DNA from: a virus
Reading direction: 5' to 3' (one strand)
IMG/VR virus record: IMGVR_UViG_3300015024_000001
Location: 32,001 to 96,000 of that record
DNA: 64,000 nt
Part shown: one piece after another, positions 858-49,717 of the stretch
Numbering within the stretch: position 1 is the stretch's first letter
Layout of the letters: the number at the start of each line of letters is the position of its first letter
The notes under the pieces: model-generated
What the model was told of the DNA's origin: nothing
The model's input: only the letters and a program-made list of their open reading frames with translations
The model's database searches: none
Translations under genes and position numbers: made by a program

Positions 858-1887
858 AGACAGACCCTATTTCTGTTGATGTAGCAAAAATAGAGTTTGT
901 AGTAGGACAATAAGTAAGTCCTGAAGATGTTGCATCAATCTTAATAGTGCCAATTACACTATTACTATTAGGATCTATAACAGAAATGTAAGGTAAGCTT
1001 CTATTTGAAACATATAAATACCCATCATAGATATTGCGTACTATTTCTCTTGGATTTCCACCAACTGAAATAGTAACTAGTACTGATTGAGAACTACAAC
1101 TGATAACACTAACTGTACCAGTATTTGTATTTGTGACATATATATTATTATAAGCGGAAAGATAGGTAACTCCAATACAACCACCACCTAAAGAAATAGA
1201 CATAAAAATAGTCCAAGATATAGGATCTATTAAATATACACCACCAAAAGAACGACTTGCTAGATATATATACCCATTAGAAGTACAATAGGCAGCCATA
1301 TATGGTTGAGCAATACCCGAAATAGTTGTAGTTAAAGTTTGACTAGCTACATTTATAATCGATATATTATTAGAACCAAAGTTAGAAACAAGAATAGATC
1401 CAGAATAAAAAAATGAATTTAAAGGAGAATTACCTACTACAATACTAGATACTATGGTAGATGTAGAAGGATTTATGCTAACAAGCTGTCCATTGGTAGA
1501 ATAATCATTACACACATATAATAGTCCTGAACTTACATCTTCAGTAAATCCAAAAGGAGTAGCTACATTTATAAATCCTACTTTTTCAAGAGTAGTAGGA
1601 TTTATAACTATAATACCACCACTTCCAACATTAGCTATATATATAAGACCAGAGGTACTACTATACTTAGCACTTATAGTTGTCGTTCCACACTTTATTT
1701 CTGCAAAACGTCCACTAGAATTTATAACAAAAGATTTACTTGCGGAAGGAAACCCATATATATCACCTTCTACTAAAGCACTATTAGATAATTCTAAGCT
1801 TAGACTAGATAATTTTGCACTTGCATATACATCTGCTGACCCAATCCTATAATTTTTTGTAAGATTAAAAGCTGTCTGTGGGAACAT
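832..1887 (-). CDS. YVTN/YncE-type beta-propeller protein, candidate receptor-binding protein
   Basis: Repeats IYVTNTNTGTVSVI, LYVSNRSLPYISVID, ISVGGNP. Confidence 0.8.
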   Translation of the reverse strand: MFPQTAFNLTKNYRIGSADVYASAKLSSLSLELSNSALVEGDIYGFPSASKSFVINSSGRFAEIKCGTTTISAKYSSTSGLIYIANVGSGGIIVINPTTLEKVGFINVATPFGFTEDVSSGLLYVCNDYSTNGQLVSINPSTSTIVSSIVVGNSPLNSFFYSGSILVSNFGSNNISIINVASQTLTTTISGIAQPYMAAYCTSNGYIYLASRSFGGVYLIDPISWTIFMSISLGGGCIGVTYLSAYNNIYVTNTNTGTVSVISCSSQSVLVTISVGGNPREIVRNIYDGYLYVSNRSLPYISVIDPNSNSVIGTIKIDATSSGLTYCPTTNSIFATSTEIGSVFVIPPNSF

Positions 1888-11821: not shown

Positions 11822-12271
11822 TTATTTAATAGGCTTTCTATATTGATCTAACTCTAATAATTGTTCAACTGTTAATTCAGCATGACGACCTTGTGCAATT
11901 AAAAGTTCTATTTCAGGTGAAATAATCTTCTTTTCTATGGTCTTAGGTTTAGGAGTCCAAGTTTTACATTTCTCTATAAGTGATTTATATGTAATCTGTA
12001 GACTACCAAACTCTAGTATCTCATCTTCTAATAGTAAAAGTAAATCCTGTAATTTATTATTTTCTCTTTCTTGGTTACGTTCATCAGGAGGCGTTTTAAT
12101 TTGTCCTTGTGTTTCAAGCATGTTCTCAAGTGTTACATGATCAAAATTATGCCATAACCATTCAGCAGAGTGAGGATTTACTTCTACTAGTTGAGCTAAG
12201 AAGTCAGCATCTAGGTCGCCTGTGCCGAAGCTAGAGTATCTGCTAAACGTTTGCTGTCCATCATCTTTCCC
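11822..12271 (-). CDS. tail assembly chaperone gpT portion (made as gpGT via -1 frameshift)
   Basis: The -1 frame is open from slippery site GGGAAAG (12265-12271) into ORF 11822..12121. Confidence 0.85.
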   Translation of the reverse strand, partial: GKDDGQQTFSRYSSFGTGDLDADFLAQLVEVNPHSAEWLWHNFDHVTLENMLETQGQIKTPPDERNQERENNKLQDLLLLLEDEILEFGSLQITYKSLIEKCKTWTPKPKTIEKKIISPEIELLIAQGRHAELTVEQLLELDQYRKPIK

Positions 12272-30355: not shown

Positions 30356-32580
30356 TATTTGCAGATGATTTCGTAGAATTTAATGAAGAAGTTAAAACTT
30401 ACCAGAGAATGCAAAAAGGTAAACTTATAACTGTAAGACAATACGATAGGAAAGGTGATCCTGCTGAAAAAGAACAAACTATAGAAAAGAATGACAATGC
30501 AATTATGCAAAGTCTGAAGACAGGAGCTATAGTTACTACTGGTGTTGCTTTAGCAGGTTTATCATTAGTTGGTATTGGAGCAGCAACAAAAGCTTATGTA
30601 ATAAATAGACATGCTAAACAAGTATTAAATGAAGCAGAACGTGTGTTACAAGCAAGTGATGTGTCTGACCTTCGTTTCTTATCAAAAGCTAATCCTGAAA
30701 AACTACCTGATAATTTTGATCGGTATGAAGGTATAATTATTGCGACTGGTGGATTTGGTGGTACTAAAGGACAGCATACACTTGAAGTACATAAGTATAT
30801 ACAACAAGAATACCCTAACCACCTAGTTGTATCTGTTGAAAATATGTATCATGATTTAGGTTGGAGAGAAGATGTTGTAGATAGATTTAAAGCTGCTCCT
30901 GCATTATTATGGCGTAATGCAACACAAGGGAATAAAACATCAGAAGAAATAGCTACTTTAACTAAAATGCTACGTAAAAGAACAGATAAACCTATTACTA
31001 TAGTATCTGCTTCTGGTGGTGGTATGGCAGTAAAAGAAGCTCAAGAGATAACAGATAAGTTAGGTTATAAAGATATACAAGGAATAGGTCTAGGAACACC
31101 AACTTTTACACTTGCAAATCCTAAATCCCCTTTTGTTTCTTTTGTAGACAAGAAAGATGCAACAGTGGGTTGGATTCCTAAAACTTCAAAAAAAGATACA
31201 GTATATATAGATAGACCAACAACTAAAGTAAAGTGGAATCTTAATCCATACCAAGGTGAAATACCTCACAATGAACAACATGAGTTTGGTACTTATCTTT
31301 TGCACGGTGAGACAAGATCTAAAGTAGATCAAATACTGTATAGGAACATAGCTAATAAAGATGTATTTAAACTAGAAAACTACACTATTGACTATAAACA
31401 AAATGTAGCGCGTAATCCATATATAAGTAAACAAGGACAAAACTCTAGTTATAGTAAGCTAGAACAACAAGCTTGGGCGAACTTTAATATACTCTTCCCT
31501 TCTATGGATGCTGATTTTGCTAGTGAACAACAAGTAGAAGTTAAATCTTATATGCGTAATGGAAAACTTGTAAAATCTTATACAGCAGGTAGAGATAAAG
31601 CGGTACAAGATTCTAGTTTAACTAATAGACTACGTAATAATATTGCTGGAAACATAGAAAAGAAAGGTCTAAATGAAGATACGGCAGATAAATTAGCCGA
31701 AGTAGCGTTAATTGTTGGTGGTACAGGTGTTGCTTTAATAGGTAGTAAGATGATACTAAATGGTGGTTTAGCAGCAGCTTTAAATATGGGTCGTCATGCT
31801 TGGAATACTAACTTTCTTAAACGTAATAGAATGATTGAAGAGATGGCTGATGAGCTTGTGAGTGGTAGGAAACTGTTCAGAGGTCAGACATTACGTTCTA
31901 CTATAGGTGATGCTGATACAGTAATAACTATCAAAGGTGGCATCAATATGGGTGGTAAAGGTGGTACTACTATTAAAAATGAATACCTTGATAAAATAAG
32001 TCAGAGAGGAGATAAATGGGCTGTACTCGATCTTGATAATTTAGAACTTGATTCAACAGGTATATCATCTAAAGGTATTAATATTGGACAAACATTGAAT
32101 GATTTCTGGTCTAACTTTATAATTAATCCTTTTAATAAAGGTTATAATAAAGATTCAATAGAAATAGCTGCTTATATGAGAGCTACAGAAAAAATTAAAC
32201 CTTCTGCTAATAAAGTAATGATTGGATATTCCGCAGGTGCTATAGGTACTATTGCTGCTGCATCTGATCTTTCTAAAGCTAGGTCTGTAACTAAACTTAA
32301 AGCTATCACATTTGGTGCGCCTTATTCTGGTCTTACAAAAATAGAAGATACTAGAGTTGTCGATACAGTATCATTTATTAATAAAGATGATATTCTAGCT
32401 AACTCCAAACTATCAAGAGGTAATAAAGAAGATATTAATGCAATTATAACAGAACGTCCTAATAAAGCAACAGATACAGATATACTAGCTGGGCACGGTT
32501 ATAAAGGTTATTTTGCTCAACAGAATTGGGATAAAATAAGACGTATTATTAATAATGGATCACAAGAGGCTTTTAGATAA
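30352..32580 (+). CDS. tandem double alpha/beta-hydrolase (lipase/esterase-like), each domain preceded by a TM helix
   Basis: Domain 1: ATGGFGG, VSASGGG, LGTP, KDATV, QHEF. Domain 2: GYSAGA, FGAP, KDDIL, GHGY. Confidence 0.75.
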   Translation: MIFADDFVEFNEEVKTYQRMQKGKLITVRQYDRKGDPAEKEQTIEKNDNAIMQSLKTGAIVTTGVALAGLSLVGIGAATKAYVINRHAKQVLNEAERVLQASDVSDLRFLSKANPEKLPDNFDRYEGIIIATGGFGGTKGQHTLEVHKYIQQEYPNHLVVSVENMYHDLGWREDVVDRFKAAPALLWRNATQGNKTSEEIATLTKMLRKRTDKPITIVSASGGGMAVKEAQEITDKLGYKDIQGIGLGTPTFTLANPKSPFVSFVDKKDATVGWIPKTSKKDTVYIDRPTTKVKWNLNPYQGEIPHNEQHEFGTYLLHGETRSKVDQILYRNIANKDVFKLENYTIDYKQNVARNPYISKQGQNSSYSKLEQQAWANFNILFPSMDADFASEQQVEVKSYMRNGKLVKSYTAGRDKAVQDSSLTNRLRNNIAGNIEKKGLNEDTADKLAEVALIVGGTGVALIGSKMILNGGLAAALNMGRHAWNTNFLKRNRMIEEMADELVSGRKLFRGQTLRSTIGDADTVITIKGGINMGGKGGTTIKNEYLDKISQRGDKWAVLDLDNLELDSTGISSKGINIGQTLNDFWSNFIINPFNKGYNKDSIEIAAYMRATEKIKPSANKVMIGYSAGAIGTIAAASDLSKARSVTKLKAITFGAPYSGLTKIEDTRVVDTVSFINKDDILANSKLSRGNKEDINAIITERPNKATDTDILAGHGYKGYFAQQNWDKIRRIINNGSQEAFR

Positions 32581-41848: not shown

Positions 41849-42715
41849 ATGACTAACTTGCAAGCTATTTCTGATGTATTAACAAAGATTTCGATTTCTA
41901 TCGAAATCTTTGTTAATACAAAGGCATATCATCTATTAGCGGATATGCCTGCCGATCTTTCTCTCAAGCAGTTCATTGTTGCTAAAGACAATGGATGTCG
42001 TTTAGCGGGTACACAAAGCCTATTTCGCTCTTGTGAAGTCATTGCTGACTTCACATTGCCTGCCAAGTTTGCCAAGCCTGCCAAGCCTGCCAAGCCAGAA
42101 GCTTTCACTGGCAAGGCTAAAAATGACTATTACGAATTGTTGGAGGTTTGGAGCGACTGGGATTTGACACCAGAAGCAACAATGAACGCTGAGATCGATC
42201 TCAGCGCGACTCGAATATTGCGAGACGACCTCATCCGCAAGGGTCGTAATTTGCAGCGATGCATCGCGTTCGTTCGGTCTTTCGATGCCTCTATGTTTGA
42301 AACTAATGAAGAGTTAGATCTTCATGAGTTATCAGAAAGTACACGGCAGAAAATCCTCAGTGTGTATCGCTCAGCATTTACCGCAAACCCTAACCTTTTG
42401 TTGCAGGGAAGCGCTGTTGATCTTCTTGCAAAAGATCAACTTTGTAATCTTGACAGCGTGGAGGGCATTGATCGGATCATTACAATCAAAAATGCGTACC
42501 CTAGCGCAGCATACGGTTTTATAAACCGCGAACTTTTGGGGCTGGCGTTACATTCCGTGAGGGAAGAGTGTAACGGTCTTACGTTGCTGAGGATTGCCTC
42601 AAGGCTTGACACACATCTAGGAGGAAGCAAAAATGCGACCTCTATTCTCGCTAATCTTAGGATGCTAGTATCAGGTTTAGCACCTAGTAAAGGTAAGAAG
42701 GCTGCCGCGCAATAG
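41849..42715 (+). CDS. hypothetical early protein with PAK repeats
   Basis: First plus-strand ORF; PAKFAKPAKPAKP; visibly less AT-rich than the late genes. Confidence 0.7.
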   Translation: MTNLQAISDVLTKISISIEIFVNTKAYHLLADMPADLSLKQFIVAKDNGCRLAGTQSLFRSCEVIADFTLPAKFAKPAKPAKPEAFTGKAKNDYYELLEVWSDWDLTPEATMNAEIDLSATRILRDDLIRKGRNLQRCIAFVRSFDASMFETNEELDLHELSESTRQKILSVYRSAFTANPNLLLQGSAVDLLAKDQLCNLDSVEGIDRIITIKNAYPSAAYGFINRELLGLALHSVREECNGLTLLRIASRLDTHLGGSKNATSILANLRMLVSGLAPSKGKKAAAQ

Positions 42716-42721
42716 CTAATA

Positions 42722-42776
42722 CACATAGAAAGAAAGTAACTTTCTTTCTATGTTTTCTTTCTATGTTTTCTTTCTA
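42722..42776. repeat. inverted repeat CATAGAAAGAAAG/CTTTCTTTCTATG plus 13-bp tandem repeat TTTCTTTCTATGT (about 2.8 copies)
   Basis: Read directly from sequence. Confidence 0.8.
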
Positions 42777-42799
42777 ACTAACCTATCCTGCAAAAGCCA

Positions 42800-43096
42800 A
42801 TGTATAAAGCTAAAATCACAATCGCTGTATCTTTTTCACTTTTCGCACAGTCTAAAAACTATCTAGATGATACTGTACCGTATTACAAGTATGAGTCTAA
42901 TGGCTTAACGACAGTACATGTATTTGGTCAAACTATGCAAGAGATTTTAACTCATTCTGTATTCACATTCACTGGTTTTTCAAACATTCTAGAAGTGTTT
43001 ATTACTTTTGAGGGCGAATATGATGAAGATACACAACCTAAACCTAAACACACTATGCAAGGTATAGAAGACAGTTCTAACTCTTGGGACTTATAA
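42800..43096 (+). CDS. hypothetical protein
   Basis: ORF followed by a terminator; C-terminal PKPKHTMQGI duplicated near 43985. Confidence 0.6.
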   Translation: MYKAKITIAVSFSLFAQSKNYLDDTVPYYKYESNGLTTVHVFGQTMQEILTHSVFTFTGFSNILEVFITFEGEYDEDTQPKPKHTMQGIEDSSNSWDL

Positions 43097-43118
43097 CTAA
43101 CCCGAGATCATCACACAT

Positions 43119-43151
43119 AACAGCCTAGTTTAATCGCTAGGCTGTTTTTTT
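43119..43151 (+). terminator. rho-independent terminator
   Basis: AACAGCCTAG..CTAGGCTGTT plus T-run. Confidence 0.85.
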
Positions 43152-43168
43152 ATGTCTTGGCATAGATA

Positions 43169-43222
43169 CACTGTTTCGCTCTTACAAGCTCATCAGGCAG
43201 CACAGTATATGCTGCGACAGTG
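43169..43222 (-). ncRNA. hammerhead ribozyme, type III
   Basis: Minus strand reads CACUG-UC, stem I GCAGCA/UGCUGC, CUGAUGA, stem II GCUU-GUAA-GAGC, GAAA, CAGUG; GUC cleavage triplet. Confidence 0.9.
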
Positions 43223-43266
43223 GAACATAGAAAAGAAGTTGTTAGTTTCTCTTCTATGTTAGTGGG

Positions 43267-43623
43267 TTACAACATATTGTAACCACACTCTTTGATATGT
43301 TCCACTGTCGTACTTTGCAGAAGTGCAAAGTTATATAGGTCGTCAAAACTACCAACAGTAGTAGCTTCATACTCTTCTTCTGTGAGAAGAGTAACTTCTG
43401 TAATCCCCCAATCCAATGCGGCATTGTTAGTACCATTAGGACTTAACAAACAATGCTGCTGAAAGATAAAGGCTGTGACCCACTCTTTCGTAGGATACTG
43501 AGAGGAACAACAGACAAGCCATGTATTGTCATACTGCTGATGCCACCATTTTATAATGGCATAGGCTCGTGACGGTAGGGCTTGTTTAGCCAAATAAACT
43601 ACCTGTGAATCTTTCTTAGCCAT
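43267..43623 (-). CDS. hypothetical protein
   Basis: AGGACAAA RBS and TATAAT upstream; hammerhead downstream. Confidence 0.65.
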   Translation of the reverse strand: MAKKDSQVVYLAKQALPSRAYAIIKWWHQQYDNTWLVCCSSQYPTKEWVTAFIFQQHCLLSPNGTNNAALDWGITEVTLLTEEEYEATTVGSFDDLYNFALLQSTTVEHIKECGYNML

Positions 43624-44089
43624 TCGATTTTTGTCCTGTGAAATTATCTAATTATAACGGTTTACAGTCATTAATAGCCAATAACTTAATAAATCTTAAC
43701 ATAAGCATATCTTACAAAATTCATTAAATTATCGGCTAATTTTCGTGTAAGTTAATAATCTTGCACTACCTCGACATTAGGCAGTAGATTCTGAATAACT
43801 TGAAGAGAACCACAACTAAAAAACTGAATCTGATTGGTATCATCAGTAGCAAGATCGATAAGCAGCTGATTCAAATTTAAAACTACTCTGTTGTCTGTTA
43901 ACACAAAAACAACAGAGTCAGATTCAGTGTAATTCTGAAAAAGTGATTAGAATCGAGATAGAACAAGATCCAGCCGATCTGTTACCTAAGCCTAGACACA
44001 CTATGCAAGGTATAGATAGATGTGATGATGATGATCTAGACTATTTTGATGATGATGTTGATAACCAGATCGATGTATAAACCTTATAT

Positions 44090-44119
44090 ACACGTTAGCT
44101 TATCCCTAGCGTGTTTTTT
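44090..44119 (+). terminator. rho-independent terminator
   Basis: ACACGTTAG..CTAGCGTGT plus T-run. Confidence 0.75.
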
Positions 44120-44520
44120 ATGTGCCTAACGTCACAAGGCTGCCTATAGCTAACAACACACGTCATACAGCGATCATGGTTAACACACTATGATCGTATA
44201 TGCCATATACGATCATCAGACTGTATTTATTAAGCGCTTAGAACGTAATATATAAGGCTGCCATAGAAAAGAAGTAAAGTGCTATTTTTTATTACATTGA
44301 TATTTTGAATTAACCGATCTAAGCATAAGATGTAAGAAAAGCTAGCAAGGTAGTTTTAGTTTACTAGGTAGTTTTTTATTTTTTATGTAGCGGGATTTTT
44401 TTTAATTTTTTGCTTGCCGCTATGATTACTATTTTTCTGTAACTGTTTTATAGCATTATATTATCAAAAAGCTAGAATATGTTAAGATATACATAGATAG
44501 AATTAACATAAAATTAGAAC

Positions 44521-46725: not shown

Positions 46726-47151
46726 ATGTCTGATCTACTCACAATCTTCAACAAGCTTTCTGATGACTCTTTGTTCACATACTACCAAGCTTTATATTGG
46801 TACGCTTCTGAGAACCATGAAGGGCAGTTCACAAAGCTTTATTCCATCCTTTCAACACTCAAGTACAAACCTGCACTTACAGAAAAAGCAGAAGATGTAG
46901 ATTTCGATGTGTTAGGATTTCCTGTATCACATGACAACATGGTTTTGTTGGCTACAGCGCTACGTCTGTACTACATAGTACAGCAAGAGAGTTGTAAGTT
47001 CGCTAAATTACATAGGTTTACAGATAGAAACCTATACCTTGCAGAATATCATGACTTTGATGATAACCATGTAGTATGTATCACATACTACATGGTGTAC
47101 AACATTACTGGAGATTCTATAATCAACGAAACTTTCCCTCCTGACCTATAG
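46726..47151 (+). CDS. hypothetical protein
   Basis: ORF; ALYWYASENHEGQF..LYSILS pattern seen in phage proteins. Confidence 0.65.
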   Translation: MSDLLTIFNKLSDDSLFTYYQALYWYASENHEGQFTKLYSILSTLKYKPALTEKAEDVDFDVLGFPVSHDNMVLLATALRLYYIVQQESCKFAKLHRFTDRNLYLAEYHDFDDNHVVCITYYMVYNITGDSIINETFPPDL

Positions 47152-47277
47152 GTTGCCCTGTGTACCAGCACAGGACGAGGTTCGATTCCTTGTAGCTACA
47201 TAATCTACACATAGAAGAGAACTAATAAACTTCTCTTCTACTATTACACAGGACAAAACAAGACAAGGGTAGGACAA

Positions 47278-48399
47278 ATGTTAAAGTTACAAGAAAAGAT
47301 AAAACTGCTACCGTTCTCGAAGGTGCAGTGTTGGTTCGCCCAGTCGAAGTTCGTATTATGGGAAACCTATGCAGAAGTCATGTATCAGGCTTGGCTTGCA
47401 GGTCGTAATTTGGTCGTCTACGGTAAAGGTGGTTTCGGTAAGTCAGAAATGACCTACCACTTCCTTGCTCTACTAGCAGACACTATTCCTGACTTTAGCA
47501 GTGACCTATTAGATTGTGGTGGAGCTGATTCCACGAAGATCTGGGCAGGTATTAAAGGTGCTGAATTGCCTAACTTCATCTACAATGTTGAATCTAGCTG
47601 GTTGGCAAGCCGCTATGTAGTGTTTGAGGAACTCTTTGACGCGCAACTCTCTGCGTTAGTCGAGATGAAACAAACCTTGACTTCAGGGGAATTTCGTACA
47701 CCACTACAAAGATATGTCTCAAAATATGAGTGGCTTATCTGCCTGACCAACAAAAGCAAAGCAGAAGTTCTTGATAGTGTATCGGAAGAGTCACGCAACA
47801 CAGTAGATGCTTTACTCCAGCGTTTTCCACTAGCTTACCAGCTAGAATGGACTTCAGAGCAGTTAAGAGATTCCGCTACTTGGTATGAACTATTCGCCAA
47901 AACAAAACCACATCTTACAGCAAATGTGCGTGACCTATACGCAGGTGCAATGGCACAAGCACACAAGCAAAAGAAAGCCAACCATGACTATATGAGTCCT
48001 CGGTCAGCATTACATCTACTTAGCACAACTGAAGCTTGGGCTGCAAGCACCAACAAACCTCTCACACTCAGCCATTTTATTTCTACGTCTTGGGCTTATC
48101 CTGAGCCTGTAGCAACTTACTTTAAGGATCAAGAGTTTATGTGGCTTGACCCTGAACCAGAACCTGAGCCAGTAGCAGAGGTTTTGGATATTGACTCCAT
48201 GATCGAATGTCTTGCAGAGTTAGGTACTGATGAACTACCGTTGTACAAGATGCAGCAACTTGACTTGCATGTCAAGAAGTTGGTCTATGCTTACGAAGAC
48301 AGCGACCCTGCTGCTGTAGCTTGTTTGCAATCAATGTTTGGCAAACGTCTATGTAAATGGCAAATTGTAACAGATACTCAATTTGTGGAGGCTGCATAA
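47278..48399 (+). CDS. MoxR/RavA-like AAA+ ATPase
   Basis: GKGGFGKS Walker A, VVFEELFD Walker B, CLTN sensor, ALLQRF arginine finger, SPR. Confidence 0.85.
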   Translation: MLKLQEKIKLLPFSKVQCWFAQSKFVLWETYAEVMYQAWLAGRNLVVYGKGGFGKSEMTYHFLALLADTIPDFSSDLLDCGGADSTKIWAGIKGAELPNFIYNVESSWLASRYVVFEELFDAQLSALVEMKQTLTSGEFRTPLQRYVSKYEWLICLTNKSKAEVLDSVSEESRNTVDALLQRFPLAYQLEWTSEQLRDSATWYELFAKTKPHLTANVRDLYAGAMAQAHKQKKANHDYMSPRSALHLLSTTEAWAASTNKPLTLSHFISTSWAYPEPVATYFKDQEFMWLDPEPEPEPVAEVLDIDSMIECLAELGTDELPLYKMQQLDLHVKKLVYAYEDSDPAAVACLQSMFGKRLCKWQIVTDTQFVEAA

Positions 48400-48402
48400 A
48401 TC

Positions 48403-49659
48403 ATGACACATAGAACATACGCATCACGTCCTATCACAATACCTACTACCGAAATTGCAACCAAATGCTCCCGCTTTGTTATGGACTACACAGTGGTTGA
48501 AGATTTCTACAATGTAGTACTCGGCAAAGGTAAATTCCATACAGGAGAAGACCTTAGAAAGAAAGTAGCTGAATCTTTAGCAGCAAGTGGTAGTTGGCGT
48601 TATGAGTCTTATCCTGCCGAGACCATCAAACAGCAACTTTTATATGACACTGCTGTTCATAATTTCGTGATTGATTGTGTAAAGCGTAACTTCATTACGT
48701 CTGCCACAATCGAAGCTGACATCTGTAAAATGAATGAAGCCTTTAGTGCAGGTTTCAAAGATTTTGATTCTCATACTAATACGGCGTGTGAAATAAGTGT
48801 TGACAATCGCTACTCTGTGCCAGATTTTAGTACAGTAGTTGGCAATGGTGTTTCCAGCGCTAGCAACTTTCTTTCTACGGTCTGCAAGAAAGATTGCATT
48901 GATGATATCCGTTTGTTCTCACCTGCTATACAGAAAGAACTACAAACTATACAAGACATAGCCTGTAACGTCAAAGCTGCATTAGCTTATAACAACGGTA
49001 CAGCAAAACGGGACACTAACACGAAAACAGATTTTGCAGTACAGAGAAGTAATAAATCACTGCAAGAAGCTAAATTCTTATCTCGTAGCGAGTATGTTTA
49101 TGACACCAATACACGGCTTGCTAGACTAGTAGCCAATCAAGCACAGGTTCTTACACCGCAGAAAAAAGTACGCAAGAAATTCGCTCGTTTCTTGTTGTTA
49201 GACTGTTCGGGTAGTATGACTTACTATGCAAGATACAATGTGGCAGCAGCTATACTGTTGGATTCTATAGAGTCTGTAGTCACAAACGGTGATATCCTGC
49301 ACATGGCTTTCTTTGGTGAAGACTTCTTCTACAAAGGTGTTGTAACTAAAGATAACGCCCATGACCTCTTGCTACAAGTGTGTAACAGAAAGAATTACAC
49401 TAAAGGGACAGATTATGGTGCTGTAGTTCAGACAGCTTGGCAGATCTTACAGGGATCACCCGACCGCCAACAGCTTGAAATCATACTACTATCTGATGGC
49501 AAGATTGATGCTTTTAAACCATTGTGTATACAGCAGGAGGGTGTTGTACACTTCGTAGATTTGTCTAACGGTGACCAAATAGACTCTTCTATCGCTCGCA
49601 TGGTTCGAGAACATAATGGCACAATTACTACTTTAAACTCTCGGCGTTTAGTACCATAA
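48403..49659 (+). CDS. VWA (MIDAS) domain protein, ViaA/CoxE-like partner
   Basis: LLLDCSGSM, GTD, ILLSDG; adjacent to the MoxR ATPase. Confidence 0.85.
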   Translation: MTHRTYASRPITIPTTEIATKCSRFVMDYTVVEDFYNVVLGKGKFHTGEDLRKKVAESLAASGSWRYESYPAETIKQQLLYDTAVHNFVIDCVKRNFITSATIEADICKMNEAFSAGFKDFDSHTNTACEISVDNRYSVPDFSTVVGNGVSSASNFLSTVCKKDCIDDIRLFSPAIQKELQTIQDIACNVKAALAYNNGTAKRDTNTKTDFAVQRSNKSLQEAKFLSRSEYVYDTNTRLARLVANQAQVLTPQKKVRKKFARFLLLDCSGSMTYYARYNVAAAILLDSIESVVTNGDILHMAFFGEDFFYKGVVTKDNAHDLLLQVCNRKNYTKGTDYGAVVQTAWQILQGSPDRQQLEIILLSDGKIDAFKPLCIQQEGVVHFVDLSNGDQIDSSIARMVREHNGTITTLNSRRLVP

Positions 49660-49717
49660 CCACCTGATGAGTCTACCTTGCAGTGGTAGCCGAAACCTTG
49701 CTTATGCAGGGTCGTGG
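49660..49717 (+). ncRNA. hammerhead ribozyme, type I
   Basis: CCAC, CUGAUGA, stem II G.CUACC/GGUAG.C, GAAA, stem III CCUUGC-UUAU-GCAGGG, UC, GUGG; GUC cleavage after 49713. Confidence 0.88.

Follow-up and report, generated by a model that had tools for sequence, protein, structure and literature searches.

A type III hammerhead ribozyme joined to a conserved hairpin in a phage genome and its predicted masking from within the upstream gene

The locus and its ribozyme

The stretch of DNA analyzed here, hereafter called the window, comprises 64,000 nucleotides (nt; positions 32,001 to 96,000) of the virus record IMGVR_UViG_3300015024_000001, which has 131,991 bases in total and a completeness of about 95% as estimated by CheckV. 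Its minus strand carries ORF118 (43267..43623 in the list of open reading frames, ORFs), whose TAA stop codon occupies 43269-43267, and, 44 nt downstream of the stop codon, a type III hammerhead ribozyme (43169..43222) that is predicted to cut between C43216 and G43215 and to end the ORF118 message. A hairpin that we call H2 (43226..43258, minus strand) lies between the two. Beyond the ribozyme, a terminator-like hairpin followed by a T run (43119..43146, plus strand) ends the convergent gene 42800-43096; the terminator scan called it on the plus strand only, and the U tail that it offers to the minus strand is weak. An earlier sequence-only reading of this DNA had placed the ribozyme about 45 nt downstream of the ORF and facing a convergent terminator, and our measurements agree with both statements.

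ORF118 is a real gene, as indicated by three homologs, with identities of 90, 73 and 62%, and the 62 invariant columns that they share. Neither ORF118 nor its neighbours matched a Pfam or PHROG family of known function, and a nucleotide search with 42700-44500 against deposited phage genomes returned no match. The terminase of this phage shares less than 30% identity with its counterparts in deposited phages. Viral contigs searched with ORF118 or with a neighbouring protein of 588 amino acids (aa), and metagenome contigs searched with the ORF118 alignment, yielded no relatives.

The element at 43169-43222 is a complete type III hammerhead in its core, helices and topology. Stem III, of 6 base pairs (bp), is formed by the 5’ strand CACUGU (43222-43217) and the 3’ strand ACAGUG (43174-43169). 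Position C17 corresponds to C43216, within GUC, in agreement with the requirement for H (not G) at position 17 after U16.1, and it is a C in all seven copies of the module described below. The stem I hairpin (43215-43197) has 6 bp and a 7-nt loop, or 8 bp and a UAC loop when folded. It is followed by the core strand CUGAUGA (43196-43190), which fits C3-U4-G5-A6-N7-G8-A9 and is invariant in the seven copies, and by the 4-bp stem II, GCUU-GUAA-GAGC (43189-43178). The positions G12-A13-A14 are the GAA at 43177-43175, and the pair A15.1-U16.1 is A43174-U43217; both are likewise invariant in the seven copies. The hammerhead consensus is matched at every core position, and the pairs next to the core are all intact, with G-C in stem I, G-C in stem II and A-U in stem III; a mispair next to the core is a reason for rejection in the methods of a survey of hammerheads (PMC3088659). 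Since loops close stems I and II while stem III is open, the topology is type III. The sequence-only reading had described a complete core, three stems and cleavage after C43216: its coordinates are exact, and the cut position that it proposed is the one predicted from the position of C17.

A permissive Rfam search of 43000-43400 (401 nt) aligned the element with the Hammerhead_3 family (RF00008) from model position 1 to 54 of 54 (E = 1.5e-8), with a score of 44.1 bits that is below the gathering score of 48.5 bits. The E-value of the same match is 1.1e-9 when the search covers the 131,991-base record. The gathering score is a curated reporting threshold and not a structural feature, and the shortfall of 4.4 bits results from a loop I that is 6 nt longer and a loop II that is 4 nt shorter than in the model. 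For this reason a default Rfam search lists nothing here: at gathering thresholds, no family was reported in the 64-kb window. The Rfam comparison proposed in the sequence-only reading thus gives an end-to-end match, although one that falls short of the reporting threshold. No other convincing Rfam family was found in 43000-43400.

The significance of the motif was also evaluated with a topology-aware hammerhead descriptor that covers the three topologies, with 30 genomes shuffled within 1-kb blocks as the control. The genome gave exactly two hits, the hammerhead at 43169-43222 and a type I hammerhead at 49660-49717, compared with two hits in total over the 30 shuffled genomes. When isolated, a stretch of 71 nt folds into the expected three-way junction with an unexceptional energy (z = -1.30). 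This unexceptional energy and the score below the gathering threshold are what could be said for a chance motif without function, an explanation that we regard as exceedingly improbable in view of the genome-wide E-value and the descriptor control, and which is contradicted by the conservation and compensatory changes found in six other copies.

A hairpin and hammerhead module in related contigs

The hammerhead is the 3’ half of a module of which we found seven copies on six contigs: the copy in the window, two copies (G001_a and G001_b) on the 138.7-kb viral contig G001, and one copy on each of the metagenome contigs L245, L247, L248 and L249. G001 encodes a homolog, 60% identical, of a 288-aa neighbour protein of the window; it contains a single RF00008 match (G001_a, 39.7 bits), and its second copy, located about 1.75 kb away on the same strand, was found by pattern search. 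RF00008 scores L249 with 42.7 bits; searches with this model missed L245, L247 and L248 at E <= 0.1 and G001_b at E <= 1. A tight pattern fitted to the window copy and the two G001 copies recovered only G001 among the viral contigs and five loci among the metagenome contigs, four of which are genuine; the fifth (L246) is a chance match lying in G+C-rich coding DNA. In prokaryote genomes the tight pattern gave two matches, both attributable to chance and both in coding DNA. A looser version of the pattern gave mostly chance matches in viral contigs, where, among the matches listed, the four that passed our filter all belong to the window or to G001.

The order of the elements is the same in all seven copies: a stop codon, 6-11 nt, hairpin H2, 2-3 nt, and the type III hammerhead. 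In the window, H2 has a 12-bp stem (CAUAGAAGAGAA/UUCUUUUCUAUG) and a 9-nt loop, and across the copies it has a stem of 9-13 bp with a nearly fixed sequence (CAUAGAAGAGAA/UUCUCUUCUAUG) and variable loops of 9-15 nt. We considered H2 as a Rho-independent terminator and rejected this assignment because no U run is present, the stem being followed by UUCCACUGUC; the terminator scan did not call it either. Five of the seven copies have a site resembling a ribosome-binding site (RBS) and a start codon 23-26 nt past the ribozyme; L249 offers an ATG at +21 but no recognisable RBS, and the window copy alone has a convergent terminator in place of a downstream gene.

The upstream genes are ORF118 homologs in the window and in L245, and other ORFs in the remaining copies. 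The downstream genes also differ from copy to copy, which indicates that the module moves or persists independently of its neighbouring genes. In L245 the module follows an ORF118 homolog whose C-terminus is as in the homolog P0002, so the association between ORF118 and the module is older than the genome of the window.

Past the ribozyme, the window shares about 12 nt with L249 and there is otherwise no conservation among the seven copies. This bears on the suggestion of the sequence-only reading that cleavage releases a small RNA. The geometry would permit one of about 97 nt that starts at G43215 and consists of the ribozyme body and the terminator hairpin, and the weak minus-strand U tail would make a read-through RNA antisense to 42800-43096 possible. 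We find this suggestion unsupported and consider such a role very unlikely, given the lack of downstream conservation, the presence of a protein-coding gene at this position elsewhere, and the result that the hammerhead is the only convincing Rfam family in 43000-43400.

The covariation of the ribozyme was analyzed with RNAalifold on a MAFFT alignment of the seven copies. RNAalifold recovers the hammerhead junction unaided, and 10 of its 18 pairs have changed on both sides. On this structure, 99.2% of the 120 cells pair, and none of 500 shuffles reaches the observed values for the percentage of pairing, the covariation score or the number of covarying pairs; when the partners are displaced by 1-3 columns, the pairing falls to 22-47%. 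A further measure, the number of further pair types, does not stand out (373 of 500 shuffles are as high). While the core (CUGAUGA/GAAA/GUC) is invariant, stem I is represented by four different helices, stem II by three, and stem III by two versions, CACUGU/ACAGUG in six copies and UGCUGU/ACAGCA in one. These counts overstate the independence of the copies and rest on approximately four lineages, since the stems are shared between the window and L249, between L245 and L247, and between L248 and G001_b.

A closer relative was available as DNA contigs from two runs (X1 and X3), which we compared with 42900-43750 and which both cover 43168-43750; a further run, X4, yielded no contig that aligned with this region. 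Over 583 nt, the X1 contig (2,984 nt) departs from the window by 28 letters and by 15 gap letters. Within 43168-43320 the contigs of both runs show only two differences from the window, at 43214 and at 43286, the latter a change from Cys to Tyr that is also present in the homolog P0001. At 43214 the C of the window is a U, so that the C-G pair of stem I (C1.2) becomes U.G, and L249 has U-A at the same place; as read from these sequences, the series C-G, U.G and U-A represents a stepwise compensatory path. The contig of the relative has about 279 extra bases before it rejoins the window at 43170-43022, which places an insertion or deletion exactly at the 3’ edge of the ribozyme (about 43169/43170). 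A length of 279 bases suffices for a small gene, and the phage of the window may have lost its downstream gene. The location of the ribozyme in the 3’ untranslated region of a lone gene, proposed in the sequence-only reading, is true for the window; it is nevertheless a derived, minority context, considering that five of the seven copies are intercistronic and that the relative carries some 279 bases at the 3’ edge.

To place the module in a broader context, we collected type III hammerheads from viral contigs with a pattern that fixed the inner 4 bp of stem III, which gave at least 120 loci (L006-L125) that are not a random sample. All the values that follow refer to the matches listed. A stem I of at least 4 bp and a stem II of at least 3 bp are found in 108 of 131, and 72 distinct ribozymes, one of which is that of G001, were kept after the removal of duplicates and of copies with less than 400 nt of flanking sequence. 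The 40 nt directly 5’ of these ribozymes have a mean folding energy of -11.97 kcal/mol, and 76% of them reach -8 kcal/mol or lower, compared with 19% of windows located 150 nt further upstream, 25% of those 300 nt upstream and 8% of the 40 nt downstream (Wilcoxon p about 1e-10). In 44 of the 55 cases with a strong 5’ hairpin, 2 nt separate the end of this hairpin from the ribozyme. Of the 71 ribozymes that remain when that of G001 is set aside, 43 are flanked on both sides by same-strand ORFs of 50 aa or more, 20 by an upstream ORF alone (in five of these, as in the window, the ORF that lies downstream is convergent), four by a downstream ORF alone and four by neither; nine overlap a same-strand open frame. 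The median distance is 33 nt from the stop codon to the ribozyme and 24 nt from the ribozyme to the start codon. Despite the bias of this sample, the arrangement of stop codon, hairpin, type III hammerhead, about 24 nt and start codon is common, and the position at the end of a transcription unit seen in the window is the minority case.

A masking arm inside ORF118 and the possible roles of the module

The copy in the window differs from the other six in a feature located inside the upstream gene. A long hairpin between 43215 and 43310 came to our attention through spurious microRNA matches in the permissive Rfam search. One of its sides, arm A (43296..43310, minus strand), consists of 15 nt within codons for Thr-Thr-Val-Glu-His-Ile and is the perfect complement of arm A’ (43215..43229, minus strand), which comprises the end of H2, the spacer UUC, the 5’ strand of stem III, C17 and G1.1. 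All 15 of the 15 positions are complementary; none of 2000 triplet shuffles reaches 15 nt, and the shuffle maximum is 12. In the other six modules, the longest complement of the cut-site strand in up to 352 nt upstream (only 69 nt in L245) is 5-6 nt, no better than in their own shuffles. L249 has the identical 15-nt A’ strand and no arm A, and L245, which has both an ORF118 homolog and the module, also lacks it (5 nt). The contigs from X1 and X3 keep both arms unchanged. The masking arm is thus real and lineage-specific, occurring in one of the seven modules.

The predicted effect of the arm on the ribozyme is large. The 221 nt from 43330 to 43110 fold with -82.7 kcal/mol (z = -8.73; none of 200 shuffles is as stable) into a structure in which stem III is not formed and its 5’ strand is paired with arm A, over 9 bp in the lowest-energy structure and 11 bp in the centroid. 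The helix between both arms surrounds H2 and a second hairpin, H1 (43262..43288, minus strand), which carries the stop codon in its 3’ arm. When the window copy is folded together with the 150 nt that precede it, stem III has a probability of 0.000 and can be imposed only at a cost of 12.0 kcal/mol. In the six other modules, the corresponding costs are 0.0, 2.0, 1.3, 0.0, 4.4 and 0.1 kcal/mol, and the probabilities are 0.339, 0.106, 0.018, 0.329, 0.011 and 0.334.

In our judgment, the locus is likely to be a functional type III hammerhead that, as the 3’ half of the module, processes mRNA independently of the host and leaves an upstream message ending in a hairpin. The gene would be transcribed through the module, and the ribozyme would then fold and cut after C43216. 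The upstream message would end in H2 followed by UUCCACUGUC with a 2’,3’-cyclic phosphate, and H2, placed beside the new 3’ end, should hinder 3’ exonucleases. The downstream RNA would begin with a 5’-OH and with the compact body of the ribozyme as a structured leader. In the relatives this downstream RNA would be the message of the next gene, and the module would act as a host-independent intercistronic processing site. In the window, which has no downstream gene, the cut would only set the 3’ end of the ORF118 message and split off the terminator or a read-through RNA. Setting the 3’ end of the mRNA by self-cleavage, as the sequence-only reading had suggested, is the best-supported function; cleavage cannot be assumed to be constitutive when a stretch of the ORF is predicted to mask the cut-site strand. 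In this lineage, the active fold would have to compete with a much more stable inactive one, and cleavage would need the arm to be opened, most simply by ribosomes on the last 15 codons, or the arm would serve to bury the new 3’ end, or both.

Several points weigh against this interpretation and should be considered together. The first is the fold of the window copy in its own context, which lacks stem III at the cost given above, so that this copy could be largely inactive. The intercistronic rationale is not directly applicable in the window, where there is no downstream gene. Loops I and II show no recognised tertiary contact, of the kind required for fast cleavage at cellular Mg, and no conserved pairing in the sequences of the seven copies, loop I being UAC, ACU, AUUU or AAUU and loop II having 4-18 nt without a common motif. 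The RF00008 score lies below the gathering threshold, the covariation comes from few lineages owing to the shared stems, and the wider sample was selected through its inner stem III. Moreover, the presumed protection of the message by H2 is drawn from what is generally known about the decay of bacterial mRNAs.

One possible refinement of the processing function, which would not replace it, is a ribozyme gated by translation. Arm A, written in the codons of ORF118, would lock the cut-site strand; ribosomes travelling over the last 15 codons would unwind it and free the hammerhead, so that only translated messages would be cut, and the arm would later clamp the 3’ end. The complementarity of 15 of 15 nt, compared with 5-6 nt in the other modules, the difference in the cost and probability of stem III, and the exceptional stability of the 221-nt fold are consistent with this idea. 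During transcription, arm A, located 27-41 nt ahead of the stop codon, also emerges earlier than the 3’ strand of stem III. The X1/X3 relative retains both arms without change in spite of the divergence of its ORF (the 28 letters and 15 gap letters mentioned above), and the residues encoded by arm A are TTVE compared with ETIS and STID in the 73% and 62% homologs, as would be expected if the nucleotides themselves were under selection. Conversely, the arm exists in one lineage only and is absent from L245, where the ORF118 homolog and the module coexist; it shows no covariation, given that the arm recurs only in a relative where its sequence is identical; a ribosome halted at the stop codon has already left arm A uncovered; and the whole proposal depends on thermodynamic prediction. 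We regard it as a tentative model that is unlikely to be correct.

The same pairing could act after cleavage instead of before it. If the cut takes place during transcription, the tail of the upstream product (...UUCCACUGUC>p) could pair with arm A, leaving a blunt 3’ end within a 14-bp helix. This helix would close a three-way junction formed by the arm, H1 and H2, would protect the message better than H2 alone and would prevent re-ligation. The position of the cut, one base pair inside the base of the helix between both arms, would leave the last 14 nt of the upstream product all paired, and a stronger version of the abutting hairpin would fit a group in which, among the matches listed, a hairpin abutting the 5’ side is the rule for phage type III hammerheads. 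The stability of the 3’ end is, in addition, the only obvious benefit in a genome without a downstream gene. The difficulty is that the helix should block the active fold before cleavage, and since arm A is the first to be synthesised, the model has to assume in addition either occupancy by ribosomes or slow long-range pairing; besides, the related contig retains the arm despite having about 279 extra bases past the ribozyme. Such a clamp on the product seems unlikely to us.

Another way to read the masked copy is as a silenced relic, an intercistronic module that became useless or harmful once the downstream gene was lost and that arm A now holds inactive or that is simply decaying. The window has the only one of the seven copies without a downstream gene, that copy is strongly masked in the predicted fold, and about 279 additional bases are present in the relative at the 3’ edge. 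This explanation is, however, difficult to reconcile with an intact core and three intact stems, and with a stem I that differs in L249 and in X1/X3 by pair-preserving changes only. The arm is also present in the relative that carries additional DNA downstream, and from this we conclude that the masking did not follow the loss of the gene. Furthermore, evolving 15 matched nucleotides within a coding sequence is far less parsimonious than a single mutation of the core. We therefore consider it quite improbable that the copy is a relic, and host-independent processing by a functional hammerhead continues to be the reading that we prefer.

Other elements of the genome and comparison with known systems

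The type I hammerhead found by the descriptor (49660-49717, plus strand, with stem I open) lies directly after the stop codon of a 418-aa ORF (48403-49659). Its best Rfam match is RAGATH-1-hammerhead, with 15.5 bits and E = 5.7. A syntenic counterpart is present in G001 (L250, about 1395-1480, minus strand), after a homolog of the 418-aa ORF that is 52% identical. The core of the G001 copy is CUGACGA, with a C at position 7, where the consensus allows any nucleotide (N); its stem II is a perfect helix of 7 bp, while that of the window has one U.C mismatch, and stem III differs between both copies in sequence and length. A conserved ACUGUUAC tail in the two copies could pair, judging from these two sequences, with (G/A)CAGU in loop II as a pseudoknot. 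We also considered the two hammerheads of the window as a two-ribozyme cassette that forms circles and rejected it, because the genome has a single type III copy and the type I hammerhead is on the other strand, 6.4 kb away. A further type I hammerhead, on a 13-kb viral contig (L002, about 11870-11935, plus strand), has the exact stem II and loop of the window’s type III ribozyme (GCUU-GUAA-GAGC). This ribozyme, which is situated where a 236-aa ORF ends and is separated from the next gene by about 25 nt, was rejected as a syntenic relative, being an unrelated type I hammerhead of another viral contig.

Hairpins of the H2 type also occur without a ribozyme, in all cases at gene ends. The window has them at 42724-42752 (with a tandem half-copy extending to 42767) and at 47210-47240, and G001 at 192-240, 819-855 and 95694-95730. 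The first of these, a sister of H2, has a T-rich tail and was called as a plus-strand terminator at 42723-42753. The stem CAUAGAA(G/A)AGAA is kept between the two phages, whose proteins are 52-60% identical, and the loops differ, which suggests, as far as the sequences allow, either sequence-specific recognition or copying as a cassette.

Other recurrent elements are located near small genes. In both phages, several small genes share a CACAGGACAAAA-like leader with an AGGA ribosome-binding site ahead of their start codons, at 43642-43631 (minus strand) and 47247-47258 (plus strand) of the window and near 1262 and 1922 of the G001 locus L004 (minus strand). On the minus strand of the same G001 locus there are two elements of about 40 nt (...GCAGGTGACAAGTAACTCCCTTGTTAGTTG...), at about 2000-1960 and 1330-1295, each directly behind a small ORF and ahead of the following one; this element may be a promoter or another processing signal. 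Upstream of ORF118, a weak promoter-like site (43643..43671, minus strand; ATGACT, 17 nt, GATAAT, with 9 of 12 matches) is one of seven such sites in the region, a number not above that of the shuffles (mean 8.2). A T-arm-like GGTTCGATTCC (47179-47189, plus strand), just upstream of the 47210 hairpin, was rejected as part of a tRNA, since ARAGORN calls none in the window, and no Rfam family matched in 47050-47300.

The motif TTCTATGKT appears 17 times in the window (for example at 2852, 5723, 8999, 11933, 20640, 50917 and 62108), compared with 2.46 expected and with none of 100 shuffles reaching this number. It appears 38 times in the genome, where it has an extended pyrimidine-rich consensus upstream and resembled a promoter or a protein site. 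Its excess may be in part a codon effect, given that eight of nine antisense coding copies are in one reading frame.

Compared with the members of RF00008 (clan CL00010), the ribozyme of the window is alike in its full core, three helices with stem III open, the G10.1-C11.1 and A15.1-U16.1 pairs, and C17; it differs in its shortfall of 4.4 bits and in belonging to a double-stranded DNA phage and not to a circular RNA replicon. A passage of a recent article (PMC13725137, 2026) presents type III as usual in infectious circular RNAs and type I as usual in bacteria and phages, a picture that contrasts with the at least 120 viral-contig loci with type III copies found here.

The locus also resembles the intercistronic RNase III sites of bacteriophage T7, where the host enzyme cuts a long double-stranded stem and the upstream message, ending in a hairpin, is stabilised. 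The likeness would be one of outcome, an intercistronic cut and a hairpin-ended message, and not a family relationship. Here the RNA would cut itself, the hairpin is of 9-13 bp, and the ends would be a 2’,3’-cyclic phosphate and a 5’-OH.

Intergenic hammerheads of phages have been known since 2011. In the parts of their paper considered here, Perreault et al. (2011, PMC3088659) describe hammerheads that flank genes of phages and prophages and whose pseudoknot or loop contacts vary, and propose that they cut long transcripts into gene-length mRNAs, a role that matches the processing function favoured above. Our locus agrees with that description in its intergenic position in a phage and in the presence of several hammerheads per genome. 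It differs in that the ribozyme is fused to a hairpin of conserved sequence and is masked, in one lineage, from inside the upstream ORF; the passages of PMC3088659 considered here describe neither a hairpin fixed at the 5’ side nor such masking, and the paper contains the word “terminator” zero times. Among the open-access articles searched, we found no paper that describes the combination of hairpin and hammerhead or translation gating. A passage of a 2019 review (PMC6765202) calls the role of phage hammerheads unresolved. The masking from the upstream ORF may be a regulatory twist, one that we consider moderately interesting.

The locus is a well-supported hammerhead missed by the default thresholds of Rfam, and annotation pipelines based on gathering scores overlook both hammerheads of this genome as well as the copies of its relatives. 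It is tied to a fixed layout, in which a stop codon, a hairpin, the ribozyme, about 24 nt and a start codon follow one another, and this layout suggests a testable reason for the ribozyme to be there, namely to provide a 3’ end protected by a hairpin and a defined 5’ end without a host nuclease. The masked copy of the window and the nearly identical, unmasked copy of L249 constitute a natural pair for addressing whether translation regulates cleavage. If the gating were true, it would represent a natural self-cleaving ribozyme that reports the translation of the upstream gene, carried on a cassette that phages shuffle between genes.

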